From Shigella phage MK-13: 64,000 bases of DNA. Positions within the stretch are counted from its first letter, which is position 1; each line of letters begins with the position of its first letter. Under the pieces are notes generated by a model. It was not told where the DNA came from. It was given only the letters and a program-made list of their open reading frames with translations, and searched no databases. Position numbers and translations under genes: made by a program. The stretch lies in sequence record MK509462, one strand, 5' to 3'. Shown here piece by piece: positions 58,595 to 64,000 of the stretch.

Positions 58595-59113
58595 TTAGAT
58601 GGTGCTCATGTAGAGAGGAACCACCTGCTCTGCGATCAGAACGATCTCATTAATGGTGAAGTCGCCACCATAAGAATACAGCTTCATCTGCGCCCCGTTG
58701 GTTGCGAGGTTCCCTGCCTTGTCAACACTGAAGAACGTGATAAAGGAGAGAACGTCTGGGGGCGGTACGCTGGAATCTCGACTCTTAGACAATTGGTTGC
58801 CTGTAGAGCCAACAAAGTCCAGCAACATCGTCCTGTTGGATGTCGAACCAGACCATGTTCCGATGATGTTCACCTTGACAGGCAAGATAGAATCGACCGG
58901 AAATGCATGGAACTTATGGTCGGACAATTTGAAGAAAGGGGCTAACCCAGTCACAGACGAAGGATGCGGTGTTTTACCGTCCAACAACGTTAAGAGATCA
59001 ACACCAGTCGCTCCAGCAGGCAAAGCCGCTGTGAGGCCAGAGAACCTCACTTCAACTTTGATGCGGTGCGTCTGGAGCATATTGCCCAGGTAAGGAGAAG
59101 GTAGAATGGCCAT
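58595..59113 (-). CDS. Hypothetical protein (late-transcribed, possibly virion-associated)
   Basis: 172 aa; immediately downstream of a gene with a TATAAATA late promoter. Confidence 0.4.
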   Translation of the reverse strand: MAILPSPYLGNMLQTHRIKVEVRFSGLTAALPAGATGVDLLTLLDGKTPHPSSVTGLAPFFKLSDHKFHAFPVDSILPVKVNIIGTWSGSTSNRTMLLDFVGSTGNQLSKSRDSSVPPPDVLSFITFFSVDKAGNLATNGAQMKLYSYGGDFTINEIVLIAEQVVPLYMSTI

Positions 59114-59121
59114 GGCTCCTC

Positions 59122-59357
59122 CTAGGAAACGATAACAGAGGAAGCAGAAGACGCGCTCTTAACCCACCCAACAGTCGGCGGGGTGAGCACAACGATATTA
59201 CCTTGATAGAGAGTATGAGCCGGAGAGGAAGCACTCGGCGTGGTTGGACTATCACACAAATACACAGAACCTTGAGTCACTTGTATTGTTTTCAATGATG
59301 TGCCATCTGAGACTTGCGTCCATGTACTTGCATCCAGAGTAAACTTGGCTGTTGCCA
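59122..59357 (-). CDS. Hypothetical small protein (late gene)
   Basis: ORF 59122..59376; start placed at the ATG preceded by AGGAGG; TATAAATA about 30 nt upstream. Confidence 0.4.
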
Positions 59358-59386
59358 TGATACACCTCCTGTACAAGTTCAGATCT

Positions 59387-59394
59387 ATTTATAC
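59387..59394 (-). promoter_or_regulatory. T4-type late promoter core TATAAATA (minus strand)
   Basis: Plus-strand tatttata = TATAAATA on minus, followed by an AGGAGG RBS and ATG. Confidence 0.5.
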
Positions 59395-59786
59395 CGGACA
59401 AAAGAAAGCCGGATATCCTTATCCGGCTATACCACATCGATGGGATGGGTGGAAAGACTACACACTTTGCACTGGTACTGCCCTATGGGAGAGCGCGTCA
59501 GGAGTCGAACCTGAAGTCGTCGGCGTAGAGAAAGCTATTTGCATTTCACTATCCTCGCCGCGATTTTCTTAACTTCCTAAACACCCGATTACGAGAGAGT
59601 CGGCATGCACACCTTCTAACTCTTCAGGAAGTCACGCCCACAATTTGGTGCCCGTTAGAGGGGTTGAACCTCAGCACTCTGGTGATCAACCCAGAGAGTC
59701 GCGCCTCATCCGTTTGTTAGTCAGATTTGGGTCTTGCAAAACCTTAACCGACCGTCTACAAACAGACTGCTTGACCGAGCGTAATT

Positions 59787-59870
59787 TGGAGCGGGAGAGC
59801 AGGATTCGAACCTGTCCAGTGATCGTCGCCGATGATCAGTCGGCTACTGTCCAACCCCTATGGCTCCCGC
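59787..59870 (-). tRNA. tRNA-like gene, atypical (anticodon unresolved; GAT if the central hairpin is the anticodon arm)
   Basis: Hand-folded: 7-bp acceptor gcgggag/ctcccgc, T-loop TTCGAAT, encoded CCA, 5-bp hairpin gccga-ctGATca-tcggc; one extra nucleotide between T-stem and acceptor and a long variable region. Confidence 0.35.
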
Positions 59871-60093
59871 GAAATAAGGACGGGCTTCACACCCGATTGA
59901 GCATTTGATCTGCCGTAGCCCAACTCCCCGCGCTTCTCAGCGCCGATTGGTTAACTGGCGACCAGTGCCTTCTGGTTCGATCTCCTGGAACTTTACAGGC
60001 TTTGCGCCCGACCATTTCTGGAAGTTGGGGCATCGTTTCCGATGTGGAGTCACCCCATTTTATACACAGCGTGGCTGCAACGCTTACTGTGTT

Positions 60094-60177
60094 TGGTGTG
60101 AGTGGATGGATTCGAACCACCGCGCTGTTACGGGGAGATTTACAGTCTCCTGCATTCGACCGCTCTGCCACACTCAC
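60094..60177 (-). tRNA. tRNA-Tyr (anticodon GTA), class II with long variable arm
   Basis: Hand-folded: acceptor gtgagtg/cactcac, anticodon arm ggaga-ctGTAaa-tctcc, T-arm ggtgg-TTCGAAT-ccatc, encoded CCA; anticodon loop matches E. coli tRNA-Tyr from memory. Confidence 0.7.
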
Positions 60178-60187
60178 ATTTGGTCTA

Positions 60188-60251
60188 CCGCTGCGTGCTG
60201 GGCCACGCTCGAGGACATCGGCCATCCTTCCTCAGCTAATCCACGCAGCGG
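60188..60251 (-). other. Long hairpin (10-bp inverted repeat ccgctgcgtg / cacgcagcgg, about 44-nt loop) adjacent to tRNA-Tyr
   Basis: Inverted repeat seen directly; possible processing signal or small RNA. Confidence 0.35.
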
Positions 60252-60434
60252 CAGATTTGTTTCAGAGTGTCCGGTGTAGCAACCCGTGAGGTGCGCACTA
60301 CTGTAGCCTCTACACTCTGAATTTGGTGGGCGTTACTATCGTCGTCTTCGGATTCCGTTCGGCTATTGGACAGAGGCTTGGAGCTTGTCGGTCGCGTACT
60401 TCGTGCCTATTCACTTTCGTTCACACCCATTGTC

Positions 60435-60510
60435 TGGCGACGATGACAGGACTTGAACCTGTGACATATGGATTAACAGTCCACCGTTCTACCGACTGAA
60501 CTACATCGTC
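60435..60510 (-). tRNA. tRNA-Asn (anticodon GTT)
   Basis: Hand-folded canonical cloverleaf: acceptor gacgatg/catcgtc, D-arm gttc/gaac, anticodon loop ctGTTaa, T-arm acagg-TTCAAGT-cctgt, encoded CCA; near-identical core to E. coli tRNA-Asn from memory. Confidence 0.75.
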
Positions 60511-60939
60511 TTTATCCGTGCTTGTTCGCTTCAATCGCCCTTAATTGGGCATCAGCGTCAGCTTTGGTGTCATGTGTACCAAGAACCTTCGTCTTGGTGT
60601 GGTCAAGGACAACCCACTTGTCACCTCGCTTTTCAACAAACTCGACAATCTCTTTGTTGTCGGTAGCGAGGCCATCCCACTCAGCAATAAAATCACCGAA
60701 CGTTTTCATCATACTCACCAATTGTTTATTGAACAACTGGTTTATTTAGGTGCTCCCAAGGCGGTATTTGAATCCCGCGATCCCATCACACCTGCCGTAG
60801 ACCGGAGCTTGCTGGCAGTCCAACAATGTTTGGCGGGGTTTGAGGATTTTCACCTCACCTGCTGGGTTTGGCCGCCCAGCCGTTCTCTATGAGGATTCGC
60901 TGTCCGGACAACTATCCCTTAAACTATCGCCCCTCAATT

Positions 60940-61019
60940 TGGTTGGAGGAGAAGGATTCGAACCTTCAACGGCTGCCGCCATCCCCTCAGGGAATGTCTA
61001 CCCCTTCCATCATCCTCCA
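60940..61019 (-). tRNA. tRNA, isotype uncertain (possible anticodon TGA)
   Basis: Perfect 7-bp acceptor tggagga/tcctcca, perfect T-arm gaagg-TTCGAAT-ccttc, encoded CCA; D and anticodon arms fold ambiguously by hand. Confidence 0.45.
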
Positions 61020-62540
61020 AATTATTGTGTGACCAACCAAGGACTGTCAACCCTTTATCCCGTTTGTGCATGATCAGTTCATGCAGGCCTGTTTGTGCGC
61101 CTCACAGCATGCGCTTCTGTTGGTCATTGGCTTGCACCGTAGCCTCGCAACAGGCGTTTATTTTTCCAGGGCTTTCCACTTGCAAGTCTTAACCATACAG
61201 GGATACGGGCTTGCAAGATCGGGTTGGTCACAACTCTGATGGCTCTCGCCTTTCCGCTCATTTACCTGTCATCCACAACCGATATACATTATGGAATCTT
61301 GAGAGCCATCAGAGTTGCAGCCATGCTACAACCCGCACCTGGGAGAGGACAAGGTGATCGACCCCAGATACTTGCCTGCTTTCGCCAGGCCAAACGGTTT
61401 AGCGTCGGGTGCCTCCCGATGCCATTATCATGGCGAATAATGGCGTTGACTTATCCTCAGGTGGTTCTTGCCACTCAACCCTTGCGCTTAGCAGGATTCA
61501 CTAAACAACCCGCACTTCAGTGTCTTCGTCACACTTCAGCACTTGTCCTCTAACGTTCAGACCAAACGAGGCTGGCCGATAGCAAACTTGTTCTCTGGTA
61601 TTTTGTGACCCGCCAGAACGGTATGGGTTGATAGCCCGAACTCAGTTTGTATCGTAGAGTGATCACACTTGTCAGGATGATCACTATTTTGCGAACTCGA
61701 GAATACTGCACCTGTCTCGGGTTTCCCCTTAGTACGGTCACTCATTGTTCGAAGCAGTCAGGGAGCTACCCTTGATGACCGCGCTTATCTTGAGCTGTTC
61801 CTGGTGCCCACCAGTGTCCGGAATGTATAGGCATCGCAGCTTTACAAGGCAATGGTCTATTTCACCCATCGCTCTCCCAAGTTCGCAAAGTAGAGTTCTC
61901 TGAACTTCAATGACCCCTCATCTTGTACTATCGCCGCCGGGAACGTTCACCATGTGAATCAACCCTTGGGTTAAGTTCAACGTCCAGAGGACTCTACTTT
62001 GCGTTGTGGGGGCTGACCCCCACACGGCTACTTCTTTAACAGGGATTGCCAGCCCTGGGGATTCCACTGTTTAAGGCTTCATCCCATAACGCCTTAGGCG
62101 TGTTCTCAAATTATTGAGCTTGCTTAACTGCAAACTGATGCGCTGTGAGACACATCTTTGAGGGCACTCAGTGTGCAACAGGCTCCGATATTTCATAGGG
62201 CATTACTGCCTCGGATTTGAGTTGCCTTTCTCCTGAAACTCCATGCAGTCTCGCGTCTGACGCGGAATGCCCTCAAAGATGTGGAGCCGCTTTAGGGAGT
62301 CGAACCCAAGTGATTGGCCAGCGCTGACCTCACACCCCACCTGATATGTTCACCGGAACTTGCCTACTCAGGAGCTTATCCCCTTTTGACAATCAGGTAT
62401 AGCGGCATTGTAAATCTGTTTGGGCGGAGGCCTGTAACCAGCAGGCATCTCCTAGCGAACTTCTGAACACCAGGCTCGGGTGCGCCTGTCGCTGTGGTGA
62501 GTTCGACTTAACTCCTGAGCGGTTATTCCCAGTCGTCGAC

Positions 62541-62624
62541 ACCCCCCAAACAGATTTTAGTCGGCGGGAGCTTATTAATCACACCCCCCAAACAGATTTT
62601 AGTCGGCGGGAGCTTATTAATCAC
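62541..62624. repeat. Perfect tandem duplication of a 42-bp unit (accccccaaacagattttagtcggcgggagcttattaatcac x2)
   Basis: Two identical adjacent copies; a partial inverted copy (aaatctgtttggg) lies about 120 nt upstream. Confidence 0.7.
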
Positions 62625-63357
62625 ACCCTCCCGCCTATTGTAGTGCGCCGAATTTTGTTATGAGGAGTCGGAAGACCTCACTGACTTATAGGCTATTACG
62701 CCGCCATCAGAACTACATCATCGTTTGCATTTATTTTTGTGGTCTGTTTCTTAAAACCCGCAAAGTCACGCACAACGAAAACGAAAACCTGTTTGAGCAC
62801 AAGACGCCATGTCCTGGGTTCACATCGAAGTGTTTGTCTAATGCCCAAACAGCTTTTCGTTCAATGGGTTAACTATACTCTGCAACCCGTTATTGACAAA
62901 ACTTTAAATCTGCCGGAACTTACGCATCCGGCCTCGCCTGTTGGTGCTCCTTCGAATCCGGGAAGATCAGCAGGAACTATGAATCAAGTTAATTCAACCA
63001 ACAGGAACCTTTGTGTTGCCCTTTGACGCAACATTATGAACCCTCTGTGAAGATCCATAATGTTGTCGGCGTGATGGAACCTGGCAGATCCGTCCTCCCC
63101 TATATGTTGGTGTCGACTTGCCAACGGGGTGCTCTCAAGCATCTGAGCTAATCACGCTACAACAGGGAGTTTCGTTCTCCGACGGTCAGTGCGTCCACTA
63201 ACACCATGCAAGGTGGATGTCACGCCTCTATTCACGCATGCCCCTGAGACTGGGATTAGTGAGGTCGGCTTTAGATGCCTAACTCAATGCGCTGTTCGCC
63301 TCACGTTTAATACTTTACCACAGCCCAGCTAATTTGAAAAGTCCTCTCCTCTTTGAG

Positions 63358-63504
63358 TTACACTGCCCACAGCAGTGCGGACGAACCTTCACTCAAAACC
63401 GGATGCACCGAAGTGGGCGACTGTTTACCGGACTGATCGGGTAGACCCAGGAGAGTAAAGGTAATCCCGATCAGGAGGATGAGGAGTAACATCATGTAAA
63501 ACAT
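63358..63504 (-). CDS. Small hydrophobic protein (about 48 aa)
   Basis: Hand translation MFYMMLLLILLIGITFTLLGLPDQSGKQ... preceded by a strong GGAGGG RBS; approximate coordinates. Confidence 0.3.
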   Translation of the reverse strand: MFYMMLLLILLIGITFTLLGLPDQSGKQSPTSVHPVLSEGSSALLWAV

Positions 63505-63561
63505 AGTGTTCCCTCCCTTCCATGCAACTAACTTTACTGCAATTCTTTATTGAATAAAGCG

Positions 63562-64000
63562 TTATTTTACCACTTTTAACTTCACATCACGCTCGAGCAG
63601 ATACACATATTCACGGGCGGCTGCGAGCGACATATAATGGGTGGATGGGGTGCTGTGTTTGTTCAGCGTCTCTTTTAATTCAACTCGCTCAGCCCACCCA
63701 TTGATGGAGGTGCCGTAGAAGCCGATGATAGCAGCGAAATAAATGCGTTGAGTTTCCGGCTCCAGGATGTAGTTCACGGTGAAGCAAACTTCAGAGCGAA
63801 TGCCAGAAGGTTTGATACCAATACGAAAATATGGCATCTCATTGCTAACACACAAATGGCGAAAACGATCACGACGGGCTTGTGTTGACTCCGTAAGTTC
63901 TTTACGCAGATGTATATCGTCGATGTTAAAAGAGAATGTGTTGTTGCTCTTTAGATCTGATTTAGCCAGGTCGATAGCAGAAGGAAGGACACGGCGGAAA
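63562..64000 (-). CDS. Hypothetical protein, partial (5' end beyond the window)
   Basis: Track ORF 63562..63855 starts at TTG, but the frame stays open upstream to position 64000 with no stop. Confidence 0.4.
   Translation of the reverse strand, partial: FRRVLPSAIDLAKSDLKSNNTFSFNIDDIHLRKELTESTQARRDRFRHLCVSNEMPYFRIGIKPSGIRSEVCFTVNYILEPETQRIYFAAIIGFYGTSINGWAERVELKETLNKHSTPSTHYMSLAAAREYVYLLERDVKLKVVK

Follow-up and report, generated by a model that had tools for sequence, protein, structure and literature searches.

Shigella phage MK-13 (sequence record MK509462) is an Ag3-like member of the Ackermannviridae. We analyzed a stretch of 64,000 nucleotides (nt) of its DNA, hereafter the window, and focus here on a non-coding array on its minus strand that extends from ~63157 to 59407 (~3.8 kb) and is continuous with a cluster of transfer RNA (tRNA) genes. 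An earlier note on this DNA had described 61040-62540 as poor in open reading frames (ORFs). This description is borne out but was understated: since large ORFs end at ~59376 and restart at ~63358, leaving an ORF-free zone of roughly 4 kb (~59400-63350), that interval is only part of the non-coding zone and forms the middle of the array. Among the matches listed, the closest relative is Shigella phage Ag3, with ~96% DNA identity over 59300-63600; elsewhere, DNA identity of the region is 81-90% in Kuttervirus (~84% for the region as a whole) and about 75-85% in Klebsiella Taipeivirus (~76%). All RNA-like features of the zone are found on the minus strand, and the negative GC skew of the plus strand from ~60400 to 63600 likewise points to the minus strand as the RNA-like one. 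Directly downstream of the array, ARAGORN called four tRNA genes, all on the minus strand (59787-61019).

Could the zone encode several small proteins, in line with its annotation in some GenBank records? Mechanical ORFs of 40-109 amino acids (aa) are present on both strands, and several deposited genomes annotate hypothetical proteins here, up to 21 in phage GEC_vB_N6 over the 59300-63600 query. However, when the 19 ORFs of 40 aa or more in 61020-62560 were compared with nine relatives by tblastn, not one was intact across genera, and on these grounds we rejected a protein-coding reading. The 109-aa ORF 61224..61553, which the earlier note had dismissed as compositionally odd, is indeed present and is not conserved, as even the Ag3 version contains two stops. 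Best preserved is the minus-strand ORF at 61550-61741, which reaches 57-58% protein identity where the DNA is ~81% identical. Intact genes in related genomes had been named as the observation that would speak against structured RNAs, yet no ORF is kept across genera, and we find the small-protein explanation hardly credible.

The region is exceptionally rich in inverted repeats. Nine exact inverted repeats of at least 10 nt within 260 nt are found in 61020-63350, an enrichment of ~14-fold, compared with a mean of 0.63 (maximum 3) in windows of the same size elsewhere in the 64-kb stretch and 0.35 (maximum 2) in shuffled sequences. Similarly, the 276-nt minus-strand segment 62415-62140, which comprises a tRNA-like RNA (RNA D in Table 1) and the hairpin singled out earlier, folds at -104.7 kcal/mol (z = -4.1), and none of 200 shuffles did as well. 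We also compared the DNA with Rfam, a check proposed in the earlier note, using the gathering threshold for the whole window and E values up to 10 for 59000-64000. Together, the two settings returned only tRNAs, a sub-threshold STnc100 match, fragments of transfer-messenger RNA (tmRNA) confined to the tag, and obvious chance matches to microRNAs and small nucleolar RNAs. No group I or group II intron, RNase P or other such family was matched, nor a complete tmRNA model, nor GOLLD, ROOL or Y RNA; the suggestion of an intron-like element thus found no backing among the Rfam intron models. The features of the array are collected in Table 1.

Table 1. Features of the non-coding array and its borders, in minus-strand order, with further copies of the tag module
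Feature	Position	Strand	Details and basis
tRNA-like cloverleaf, first module of the array	63068..63157	-	90 nt, conserved; RNAalifold, 9 distinct homologues
Sigma-70-like promoter	62872..62899	-	TTGTCA-16-TATAGT, before cassette 1 and tag module; signal scan
Cassette 1	62779..62862	-	Arms 62862-62836/62805-62779, 25-bp stem, 30-nt insert
tmRNA-like tag module	62601..62799	-	Weak Rfam tmRNA_permuted and alpha_tmRNA matches on the tag; alignment with HK620, wV8, C1
Perfect 42-nt tandem duplication	62539..62622	-	End of tag module and adjoining stem arm; single copy in Klebsiella phage May
Cassette 2 (module C)	62412..62599	-	Arms 62599-62582/62429-62412, 16-bp stem AAAUCUGUUUGGG.../...CCCAAACAGAUUU, insert 110-152 nt
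tRNA-like RNA D	62282..62406	-	125 nt; RNAalifold, 7 distinct sequences
Cassette 3 (inverted repeat of the earlier note)	62151..62283	-	Arms 62283-62260/62174-62151, 22-bp stem, 85-nt insert
Linker with short conserved hairpins	62004..62150	-	For example CAGGG-CUGGCAAU-CCCUG; conserved in Ag3, Cba120
Cassette 4	61884..62003	-	Arms 62003-61977/61910-61884, 25-bp stem, 66-nt insert
Cassette 5	61682..61895	-	Arms 61895-61871/61706-61682, 22-bp stem, 164-nt insert
STnc100/PasD-like small RNA module	61344..61551	-	Multi-hairpin, 10-bp closing stem AGAGGACAAG/CUUGUCCUCU
Cassette 6	61225..61323	-	Arms 61323-61301/61247-61225, 22-bp stem (17 nt at 100%), 53-nt insert
Cassette 7	61028..61232	-	Arms 61232-61220/61040-61028, 12-bp stem, 179-nt insert; ~90% identical in Cba120, May, XF4
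Promoter-like site	61050-61021	-	TTGACA-18-AATAAT, within cassette 7, just upstream of tRNA-Ser
tRNA-Ser(UGA)	60940..61019	-	ARAGORN; first canonical tRNA downstream of the array; Asn, Tyr, Ile next, same strand
Intrinsic-terminator-like hairpin with U-run	59407..59428	-	Downstream end of the tRNA and non-coding RNA block; signal scan
Other tag-module copies	L002 1480-1660; L003 (wV8) 1450-1640; L004 1490-1680; L145 1460-1650

Hairpin cassettes and tRNA-like RNAs

Seven long hairpin cassettes are found in the array, with stems of 12-25 bp (22-25 bp in five of them) and inserts of 30-180 nt. Cassette 3 is the inverted repeat noticed earlier. Its 13-nt arms lie where they had been placed (catctttgagggc at 62154-62166 and gccctcaaagatg at 62269-62281) and extend to 24 nt (62151-62174/62260-62283) at 88% complementarity, with 22 pairs if G.U is allowed. 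Close relatives retain the stem around at least four unrelated types of insert, some of which contain a T arm. The stem of cassette 6 is a paralogue (CAACUNUGAKG.../...CMUCANAGUUG) and, with compensatory changes, is retained all the way from Dickeya phage XF4 through Erwinia phage phiEa2809.

Covariation was assessed on the 15 inner pairs of the two paralogous stems, pooled over 12 phage copies. We found 97.2% of the cells paired, a value inflated by the preselection of the arms as inverted repeats and their joining through artificial GAAA loops, compared with at most 49% in slid registers. Double changes were present at 7 of the 15 pairs, and none of 500 shuffles equalled the score. In cassette 4, 98.8% of cells were paired, with the same inflation, and compensatory changes affected 9 of 21 pairs in a set of only 4 sequences; again, 0 of 500 shuffles scored equally. 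Double substitutions at homologous stem positions are unaffected by the preselection of arms, and the tested stems are maintained by compensatory substitutions.

Marked differences in module content were observed among relatives. Ag3 is without the segments corresponding to 62601-62174 and 61883-61693 of the window, and Cba120, UPM2146, May, XF4 and phiEa2809 each retain a different subset of modules, so that the cassettes of the array behave as exchangeable units. For example, module C is present in May and L135 (GGGAGGGG/CUCCGCCC versus GGGAGGAGA/UCUCCACCC), absent from Ag3 and Cba120, and replaced in UPM2146 by lambdoid-type modules. A stem homologous to that of cassette 5 (GCACUUCGAUUUGUGAACUUGAGAGAGC/...) occurs in UPM2146 and L135, and the interior of this cassette is missing from Ag3. 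The upper stem of cassette 1 reads GGGCA/UGCUC in the window, GAGUCC/GGACUC in Cba120 and, with other flanks, GAGCA/UGCUC in lambdoid phages, and the linker hairpin reads CAGAG-CUUGGCAA-CUCUG in phiEa2809. Genes for HNH homing endonucleases lie within or beside the RNA array in some relatives, such as orf221 of Cba120 (L005 3574-3987), which fits a hotspot for insertion and module exchange. The same hairpin-cassette architecture recurs in the late leader of HK620, in the tRNA array of Felixounavirus and on SSU5-like phage-plasmids.

Two further observations concern the inserts. The hairpin insert CCCUUAUGGGGCUUGGCUUAAAUGCA is shared by L095 (Felixounavirus) and L026/L028 (lambdoid) within stems that differ and covary, so that, judging from these copies, the stem resembles an exchangeable frame around a payload, the insert, that is conserved. 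Within module C, a 25-nt segment (CCGCUCAGGAGUUAAGUCGAACUCA, 62522-62498) is complementary to two parts of RNA D, its internal loop (62381-62364) and its T loop (62308-62298). Cba120 has a different upstream module, likewise with UCAGGAGC. This complementarity may reflect long-range or intermolecular pairing.

Precise exchange of inserts inside conserved stems between close relatives, the presence of one insert in differing stems across phage families, and stem ends that often read CACAAC...GUUGUG are features one would also expect of elements acting at the DNA level, whether recombination or cassette-exchange sites (integron-attC-like or homing) or signals for replication or packaging. A replication or packaging cis-element had been among the possibilities raised in the earlier note. 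However, read on the minus strand the stems contain 21 G.U pairs versus 4 A.C mismatches, an asymmetry that holds on that strand only. Cruciforms would show nothing of the kind, and the structure is thus placed in RNA on the tRNA strand, which goes against the proposed cis-element. Moreover, all modules are oriented as the tRNAs are, tRNA-like folds bearing CCA and a match to a small RNA (sRNA) family are features of RNA, and no integrase or recombinase is annotated beside the arrays inspected. We consider elements of the DNA-level type improbable.

Alongside the cassettes, two RNAs adopt tRNA-like folds. The array begins with the RNA at 63157-63068, whose acceptor is 7 bp long (GCGUGAU/AUCACGC) and whose D arm reads GCUC/GAGC; its "anticodon" arm is extended, with a loop of 10 nt (CAAGUCGACA), and the T position is taken by a hairpin without a T-Psi-C loop. 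In UPM2146 an acceptor C-G pair is changed to U-A and the D loop carries a 17-nt insertion. A 16-bp hairpin (63065-63029) follows immediately 3' of this RNA. RNA D has a 6-bp acceptor (GCCGCU/AGCGGC, with C3-G70) followed by U73 and an encoded CCA, and a T loop, UUCGACU, that sits on only 3 bp (GGG-UUCGACU-CCC). Two long arms replace its D and anticodon arms, the one at the anticodon position being capped by a GCGC tetraloop. RNAalifold predicted 38 pairs, of which 5 show compensatory changes, including C-G to U-A in the acceptor. Neither RNA was called by ARAGORN or by the Rfam tRNA model RF00005 at E values up to 10, and both are devoid of a 7-nt anticodon loop; they are tRNA-like RNAs, not tRNAs. 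A permuted reading of D, in which GGCUCC would pair with GGAGCC in the next hairpin, was rejected, as this pair is invariant and is missing where the insert has been swapped.

Related observations were made within and beyond the tRNA cluster. The tRNA-Ile (59787-59870, 84 nt) and tRNA-Ser(UGA) (80 nt, anticodon at position 31) called by ARAGORN fall below the Rfam gathering score for tRNA; as only weak tRNA-Sec-type matches were obtained for them (20.9 and 24.5 bits), both may be atypical. Two elements on the minus strand, at ~59700-59640 and 59560-59480, combine a T arm with ACCA or CCCA (GAGGUUCAACCCCUCUAACGGGCACCA, UCAGGUUCGACUCCUGACGCGCUCUCCCA) and were not called by ARAGORN. These elements, near 59669 and 59510 where the cluster ends downstream, could represent additional tRNA-like RNAs or remnants of tRNAs. 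A single ORF, of 74 aa (60512-60736, minus strand), separates tRNA-Ser from tRNA-Asn; its DNA is 92.6% identical in Cba120, and the Ag3 annotation describes it as conserved and similar to p176 of Aeromonas phage Aeh1.

STnc100-like and tag modules

Between cassettes 5 and 6 lies a module resembling the STnc100 family. The segment 61506-61397 matches Rfam RF02076 with 33.4 bits (E = 1.3e-4) over model positions 30-148, the gathering score being 47. In Klebsiella phage UPM2146 a full-length match to the same model reaches 47.0 bits, equal to the gathering score, and falls within a stretch that aligns with 61576-61028 of the window at 69% identity. The module at 61551-61344 is a probable member of the STnc100 family, or lies close to it. 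No U-tailed terminator was predicted at its 3' end by the terminator scan. For the cassettes of lambdoid phages, an identity as AgvB, AsxR or Pas was rejected, as no Rfam matches to these were obtained.

The second module with recognizable kin contains a short reading frame of the kind found in tmRNA. Read on the minus strand, it runs AAAAAUAAAU GCA AAC GAU GAU GUA GUU CUG AUG GCG GCG UAA UAG and specifies the tag ANDDVVLMAA (62728-62699) from the resume codon GCA (62728-62726) to the consecutive stops TAA (62698-62696) and TAG (62695-62693). The stops lie within a CUGA/UCAG hairpin, which is followed by a hairpin UGAGG/CCUCA and by another with GGUGUGAUUAAUAA in its loop. RNAalifold detected compensatory changes at 11 of 20 pairs, and the stop hairpin and the two further hairpins all covary. 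In lambdoid copies the loop of a hairpin (GGUGUG...) is able to pair with a downstream CACAC, a possibility not visible in the window copy.

Conservation of the frame is that of a coding sequence. We found 19 distinct tags, all of 10 codons, following the pattern AN[DE]xxxL[AM][AV]A, and the entropy at third codon positions is 10.1 bits versus 5.7 and 4.3 at the others. For example, Cba120 (GCU AAU GAU AAC...) and UPM2146 (GCA AAC GAU AAU...) specify the same tag, ANDNTFLAVA, with three synonymous differences. Most lambdoid copies, read by eye, have an in-frame UAG 8 codons before the tag and thereafter no AUG, GUG or UUG, only CUG. This pattern of substitutions suggests that the frame is under selection at the peptide level, as expected of the coding frame of a tmRNA, and codon-level conservation implies that the tag is translated.

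The other half of a tmRNA was not recognized. No recognizable tRNA-like domain, in normal or permuted order (acceptor with G3.U70, T arm and (A)CCA), accompanies the tag module; neither the window nor any of the enteric loci with a tag module yielded a tmRNA in ARAGORN, and matches to the tmRNA models of Rfam are confined to the tag or to a bare T loop. Similarly, ARAGORN and Rfam detected no tRNA-like element or tmRNA in the whole HK620 genome. Because the coding frame is present and the tRNA-like domain is missing, we do not file the module as a tmRNA. We also considered a one-piece tmRNA with its 5' end at CUGCUGAUCUUCCCGGAUUCGAAGG (~62970) and its 3' end in D, and rejected it because the presumed acceptor strands are non-complementary, GGAUUCGAAGG is not conserved in Cba120, and D pairs its own 5' strand with covariation. 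By contrast with the enteric loci, many non-enteric viral contigs with the same 14-mer (ATAAAUGCAAACGA) contain complete permuted tmRNAs according to ARAGORN, with tags such as ANDERFLMAA and ANDNAFLMAA; the tag of the enterobacterial hosts is ANDENYALAA.

By BLAST, the tag module (~150 nt) and almost nothing else of the region occurs in unrelated phages, including P22-like HK620 (between pR'/qut and tQ), Felixounavirus (inside the tRNA array), Deseoctovirus C1 and Sashavirus, and in further phages that we take to be N4-like. It is also carried by ~110-kb plasmids, presumably SSU5-like phage-plasmids, where it lies beside tRNAs and hairpin cassettes of the same type. Out of 5426 complete E. 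coli genomes, 350 harbor the module, and it is unannotated in all but 2 of the 25 records listed. A search of phage databases with the region matched, outside Ackermannviridae, only the tag module and one 44-nt block.

Some neighbors of the tag module in other phages carry parts of a tRNA-like end. In wV8 (L003 1665-1743) an unannotated tRNA-like gene lies directly 3' of the module (Rfam tRNA, 31.7 bits), with acceptor CGGGGCG/CGCCUCG-ACCA, and hence G3.U70 and A73, an aberrant D region and a UCU anticodon-like loop. G3.U70 with A73 is the alanine identity set of tRNA-Ala and tmRNA. In L028 and L038, lambdoid contigs from IMG/VR, a cassette 3' of the tag module is closed by a 5-bp stem (GUGGG/CUCCAC) and ends in a T-arm-like hairpin plus GUCAGCUCCAC or GUUAGCUCCAC. 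These terminal sequences closely resemble CCAGCUCCACCA, with which E. coli tmRNA ends on its 3' side, and the end of D in the window is similar (GCGGCUCCAC). The sequence GGAGCUG that follows the 3' end resembling a tRNA-like domain in L038 was discarded as a candidate, being merely the top of the next cassette stem.

An invariant block, (UA)GUUUUCGU, lies on the 5' side of every tag module (~62793-62781 in the window, GGUUUUCGUUUUCGUU) and is complementary to nt 97-106 of E. coli tmRNA, which correspond to codons 3-6 of the host tag (ACGAAAACUA). The target ACGAAAAC was found in 81 of 117 sampled species, mostly Enterobacterales. Complementarity over an 8-mer is by itself expected by chance, and the global duplex of the tag module with E. 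coli tmRNA, in which only short k-mers match, is no better than shuffles. The complementarity may mark an anti-tag contact, be left over from the D-loop analogue of tmRNA (GGUUUCGAC) as a relic, or have arisen by chance.

Promoter-like sites flank the array, and a terminator-like hairpin lies at its downstream end. The TATAGT -10 element of the promoter-like site preceding cassette 1 and the tag module is invariant in Ag3, UPM2146, May, phiEa2809 and Cba120. In addition, the tag modules of Felixounavirus, C1 and SSU5-like elements have a TTGACA/-10 pair of their own at an equal distance.

A probable array of RNA genes and its possible processing

Overall, we conclude that 61040-62540 is probably the centre of a minus-strand array of non-coding RNA genes, which leads directly into the tRNA cluster. 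The proposal of structured non-coding RNAs comparable to T4 species 1 and 2 is upheld by the lack of conserved ORFs, the compensatory changes, the shared orientation and contiguity with the tRNAs and the STnc100-related module. In the scheme that we favor, the array and the tRNAs would be transcribed as polycistronic precursors that start from the sigma-70-like sites (62899-62872 and 61050-61021) and extend as far as the terminator (59428-59407). Host RNases would then cut these precursors, with RNase P and 3' trimming acting at the tRNA-like elements, which would serve as punctuation, and RNase III at the stems of roughly two turns; a set of small stable RNAs would be released. Tight packing is consistent with processing: the base of cassette 3 begins within the encoded CCA of D, and in Kuttervirus D starts 2 nt past the CCA-like 3' end of another tRNA-like element. 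The five stems of 22-25 bp and the RNA-strand asymmetry fit duplexes of the RNase III type, cleavage itself being predicted. Host translation or RNA metabolism would probably be the target of the payloads: the STnc100-like module would act as a base-pairing sRNA, and the tag module in or on trans-translation.

Several points weigh against the conclusion that this is an RNA gene array. Taken as a whole, the scans for promoters and terminators yielded no more than chance would give, with 4 promoter-like sites versus 4.0 expected. The stems of cassettes 4 and 5 overlap, the 5' arm of the latter with the 3' arm of the former, so that only one of the two can form at a time. Close relatives (Ag3, Limestonevirus) can dispense with some of the modules, the paired fractions given above are inflated, and a literature search found no expression or processing data for the region. 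Most modules match no described family and their functions are guesses, and the roles given to RNase III and RNase P are suggested by stem length and tRNA-likeness only.

Another reading is a graveyard of decaying tRNA and tmRNA genes, in which the tRNA-like RNAs, the tag segment and the hairpins would be non-functional remnants left by repeated tRNA gain and loss and by homing-endonuclease activity. RNA D, the RNA at 63157-63068 and the elements with a T arm and ACCA or CCCA near 59669 and 59510 all fail tRNA detection, the tag module is without a tRNA-like domain, the presence of modules varies among close relatives, and in some of these HNH endonuclease genes are found here. On the other hand, the stems stay paired through compensatory substitutions, and identity to other genera is only somewhat below that of flanking genes (81-90% versus 89-93%), and 2.5 kb of junk is rarely kept by phages. 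The tag shows a coding-type substitution pattern with synonymous changes, and unrelated phage families as well as 350 E. coli genomes have kept the same modules with promoters of their own. Decay is, in our view, an unlikely explanation for the locus.

More tentatively, within the reading as an RNA gene array, the distribution of the tag module raises a possibility that we regard as somewhat doubtful: phages of at least four unrelated groups (Ackermannviridae, Felixounavirus, P22-like/lambdoid phages and SSU5-like phage-plasmids) and many prophages may carry a promoter-driven coding piece of tmRNA without the tRNA-like domain, placed in exchangeable RNA arrays, which, if the tag is really translated, would hijack or reprogram host trans-translation by a split or other mechanism. 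If so, the GUUUUCGU block would be one candidate contact with the host tag, and the cassette array a mobile RNA toolkit directed against the host translation and RNA machinery.

The locus matters beyond this phage. Annotation treats the interval as empty or as hypothetical proteins; our analysis instead points to an RNA locus that is conserved and modular and that exchanges parts between enterobacterial phages, virulent and temperate alike. The long hairpin cassettes and tRNA-like RNAs defined here form a family that is directly testable for processing and function. The locus also links the STnc100/PasD families studied in pathogenic E. coli to virulent Ackermannviridae used in biocontrol, a connection suggestive of an "RNA island" that phages have in common beside their tRNA genes. 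An unannotated tag gene without its tRNA half, present in E. coli genomes and in well-studied phages such as HK620, raises a testable question on phages and ribosome rescue; lambda-P22 hybrid phages reportedly need tmRNA for growth, an old observation that would fit. To our knowledge, neither the hairpin-cassette family nor the tag module devoid of a tRNA-like domain has been described.

Comparison with known systems

Several known systems share parts of this organization. STnc100 and PasD are sRNAs of lambdoid prophages, in which their genes lie between that for the antiterminator Q and those for lysis (bioRxiv 10.64898/2026.05.13.724894). The array as a whole is comparable to the late-leader regions of such prophages, which are rich in sRNAs. 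The window module is likewise multi-hairpin with a terminal closing stem and resides in a phage non-coding array by tRNAs and other sRNAs. In contrast to these sRNAs, the window copy is partial and below the gathering score, a Pas-type terminator or poly-U tail is not evident in it, and its host is a virulent myovirus rather than a temperate lambdoid phage.

In bacterial Y RNAs (YrlA), a tRNA-like domain that includes a T arm caps a long closing stem. The cassettes of Kuttervirus and of lambdoid phages share this layout, as compared by description rather than sequence, whereas the inserts of the window's own cassettes are without T arms. No Rfam match to Y RNA or YrlA was found in the window (E up to 10) or in the scanned lambdoid loci (E up to 0.05), and neither rsr (Ro) nor rtcB was noted among the annotated neighbors.

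The tag module resembles tmRNA, both ssrA and permuted, in its start-codon-less frame of 10 codons, the A-rich AUAAAU before it and the one or two stops within a hairpin. Its covarying stop hairpin and the next two hairpins are reminiscent of the mRNA-like domain and helix 5 of tmRNA, and its tag of enterobacterial ANDENYALAA and of the permuted tags ANDERFLMAA and ANDNAFLMAA from phage contigs. Unlike tmRNA, it is without a G3.U70 acceptor, T arm or CCA. Our search of the literature for tmRNA-like or tag elements in Ackermannviridae, Felixounavirus and prophages returned only citations of ARAGORN and tmRNAs of other phages, namely mycobacteriophages, Bacillus phage G, a marine methylophage and the DS6A form comprising only the tRNA-like domain; no form with only the coding part was described there. 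Phages can thus carry half a tmRNA, as mycobacteriophage DS6A does (PMC4131195, PMC11915505). The tag module is the mirror image of the DS6A case, a coding part without the tRNA-like part.

With regard to processing, the 22-25 bp duplexes of the window enclose or separate RNAs, and its tRNA-like folds abut their neighbors without spacers. Stems cut by RNase III flank ribosomal RNAs and occur in T7 and lambda transcripts, and tRNAs punctuate polycistronic RNAs in mitochondria and in MALAT1 (mascRNA). The window stems differ from classical processing stems in forming a paralogous family with swapped inserts, and their cleavage is predicted. Finally, the species 1 and 2 RNAs of T4 (rnaD/rnaC) are small stable non-tRNA RNAs of a tRNA cluster that are co-transcribed and processed with the tRNAs and have tRNA-like ends. 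The window array likewise encodes non-tRNA RNAs among phage tRNA genes; in contrast to T4, it spans more than 2 kb, consists mostly of 22-25 bp cassettes and adds the tag and STnc100-like modules.

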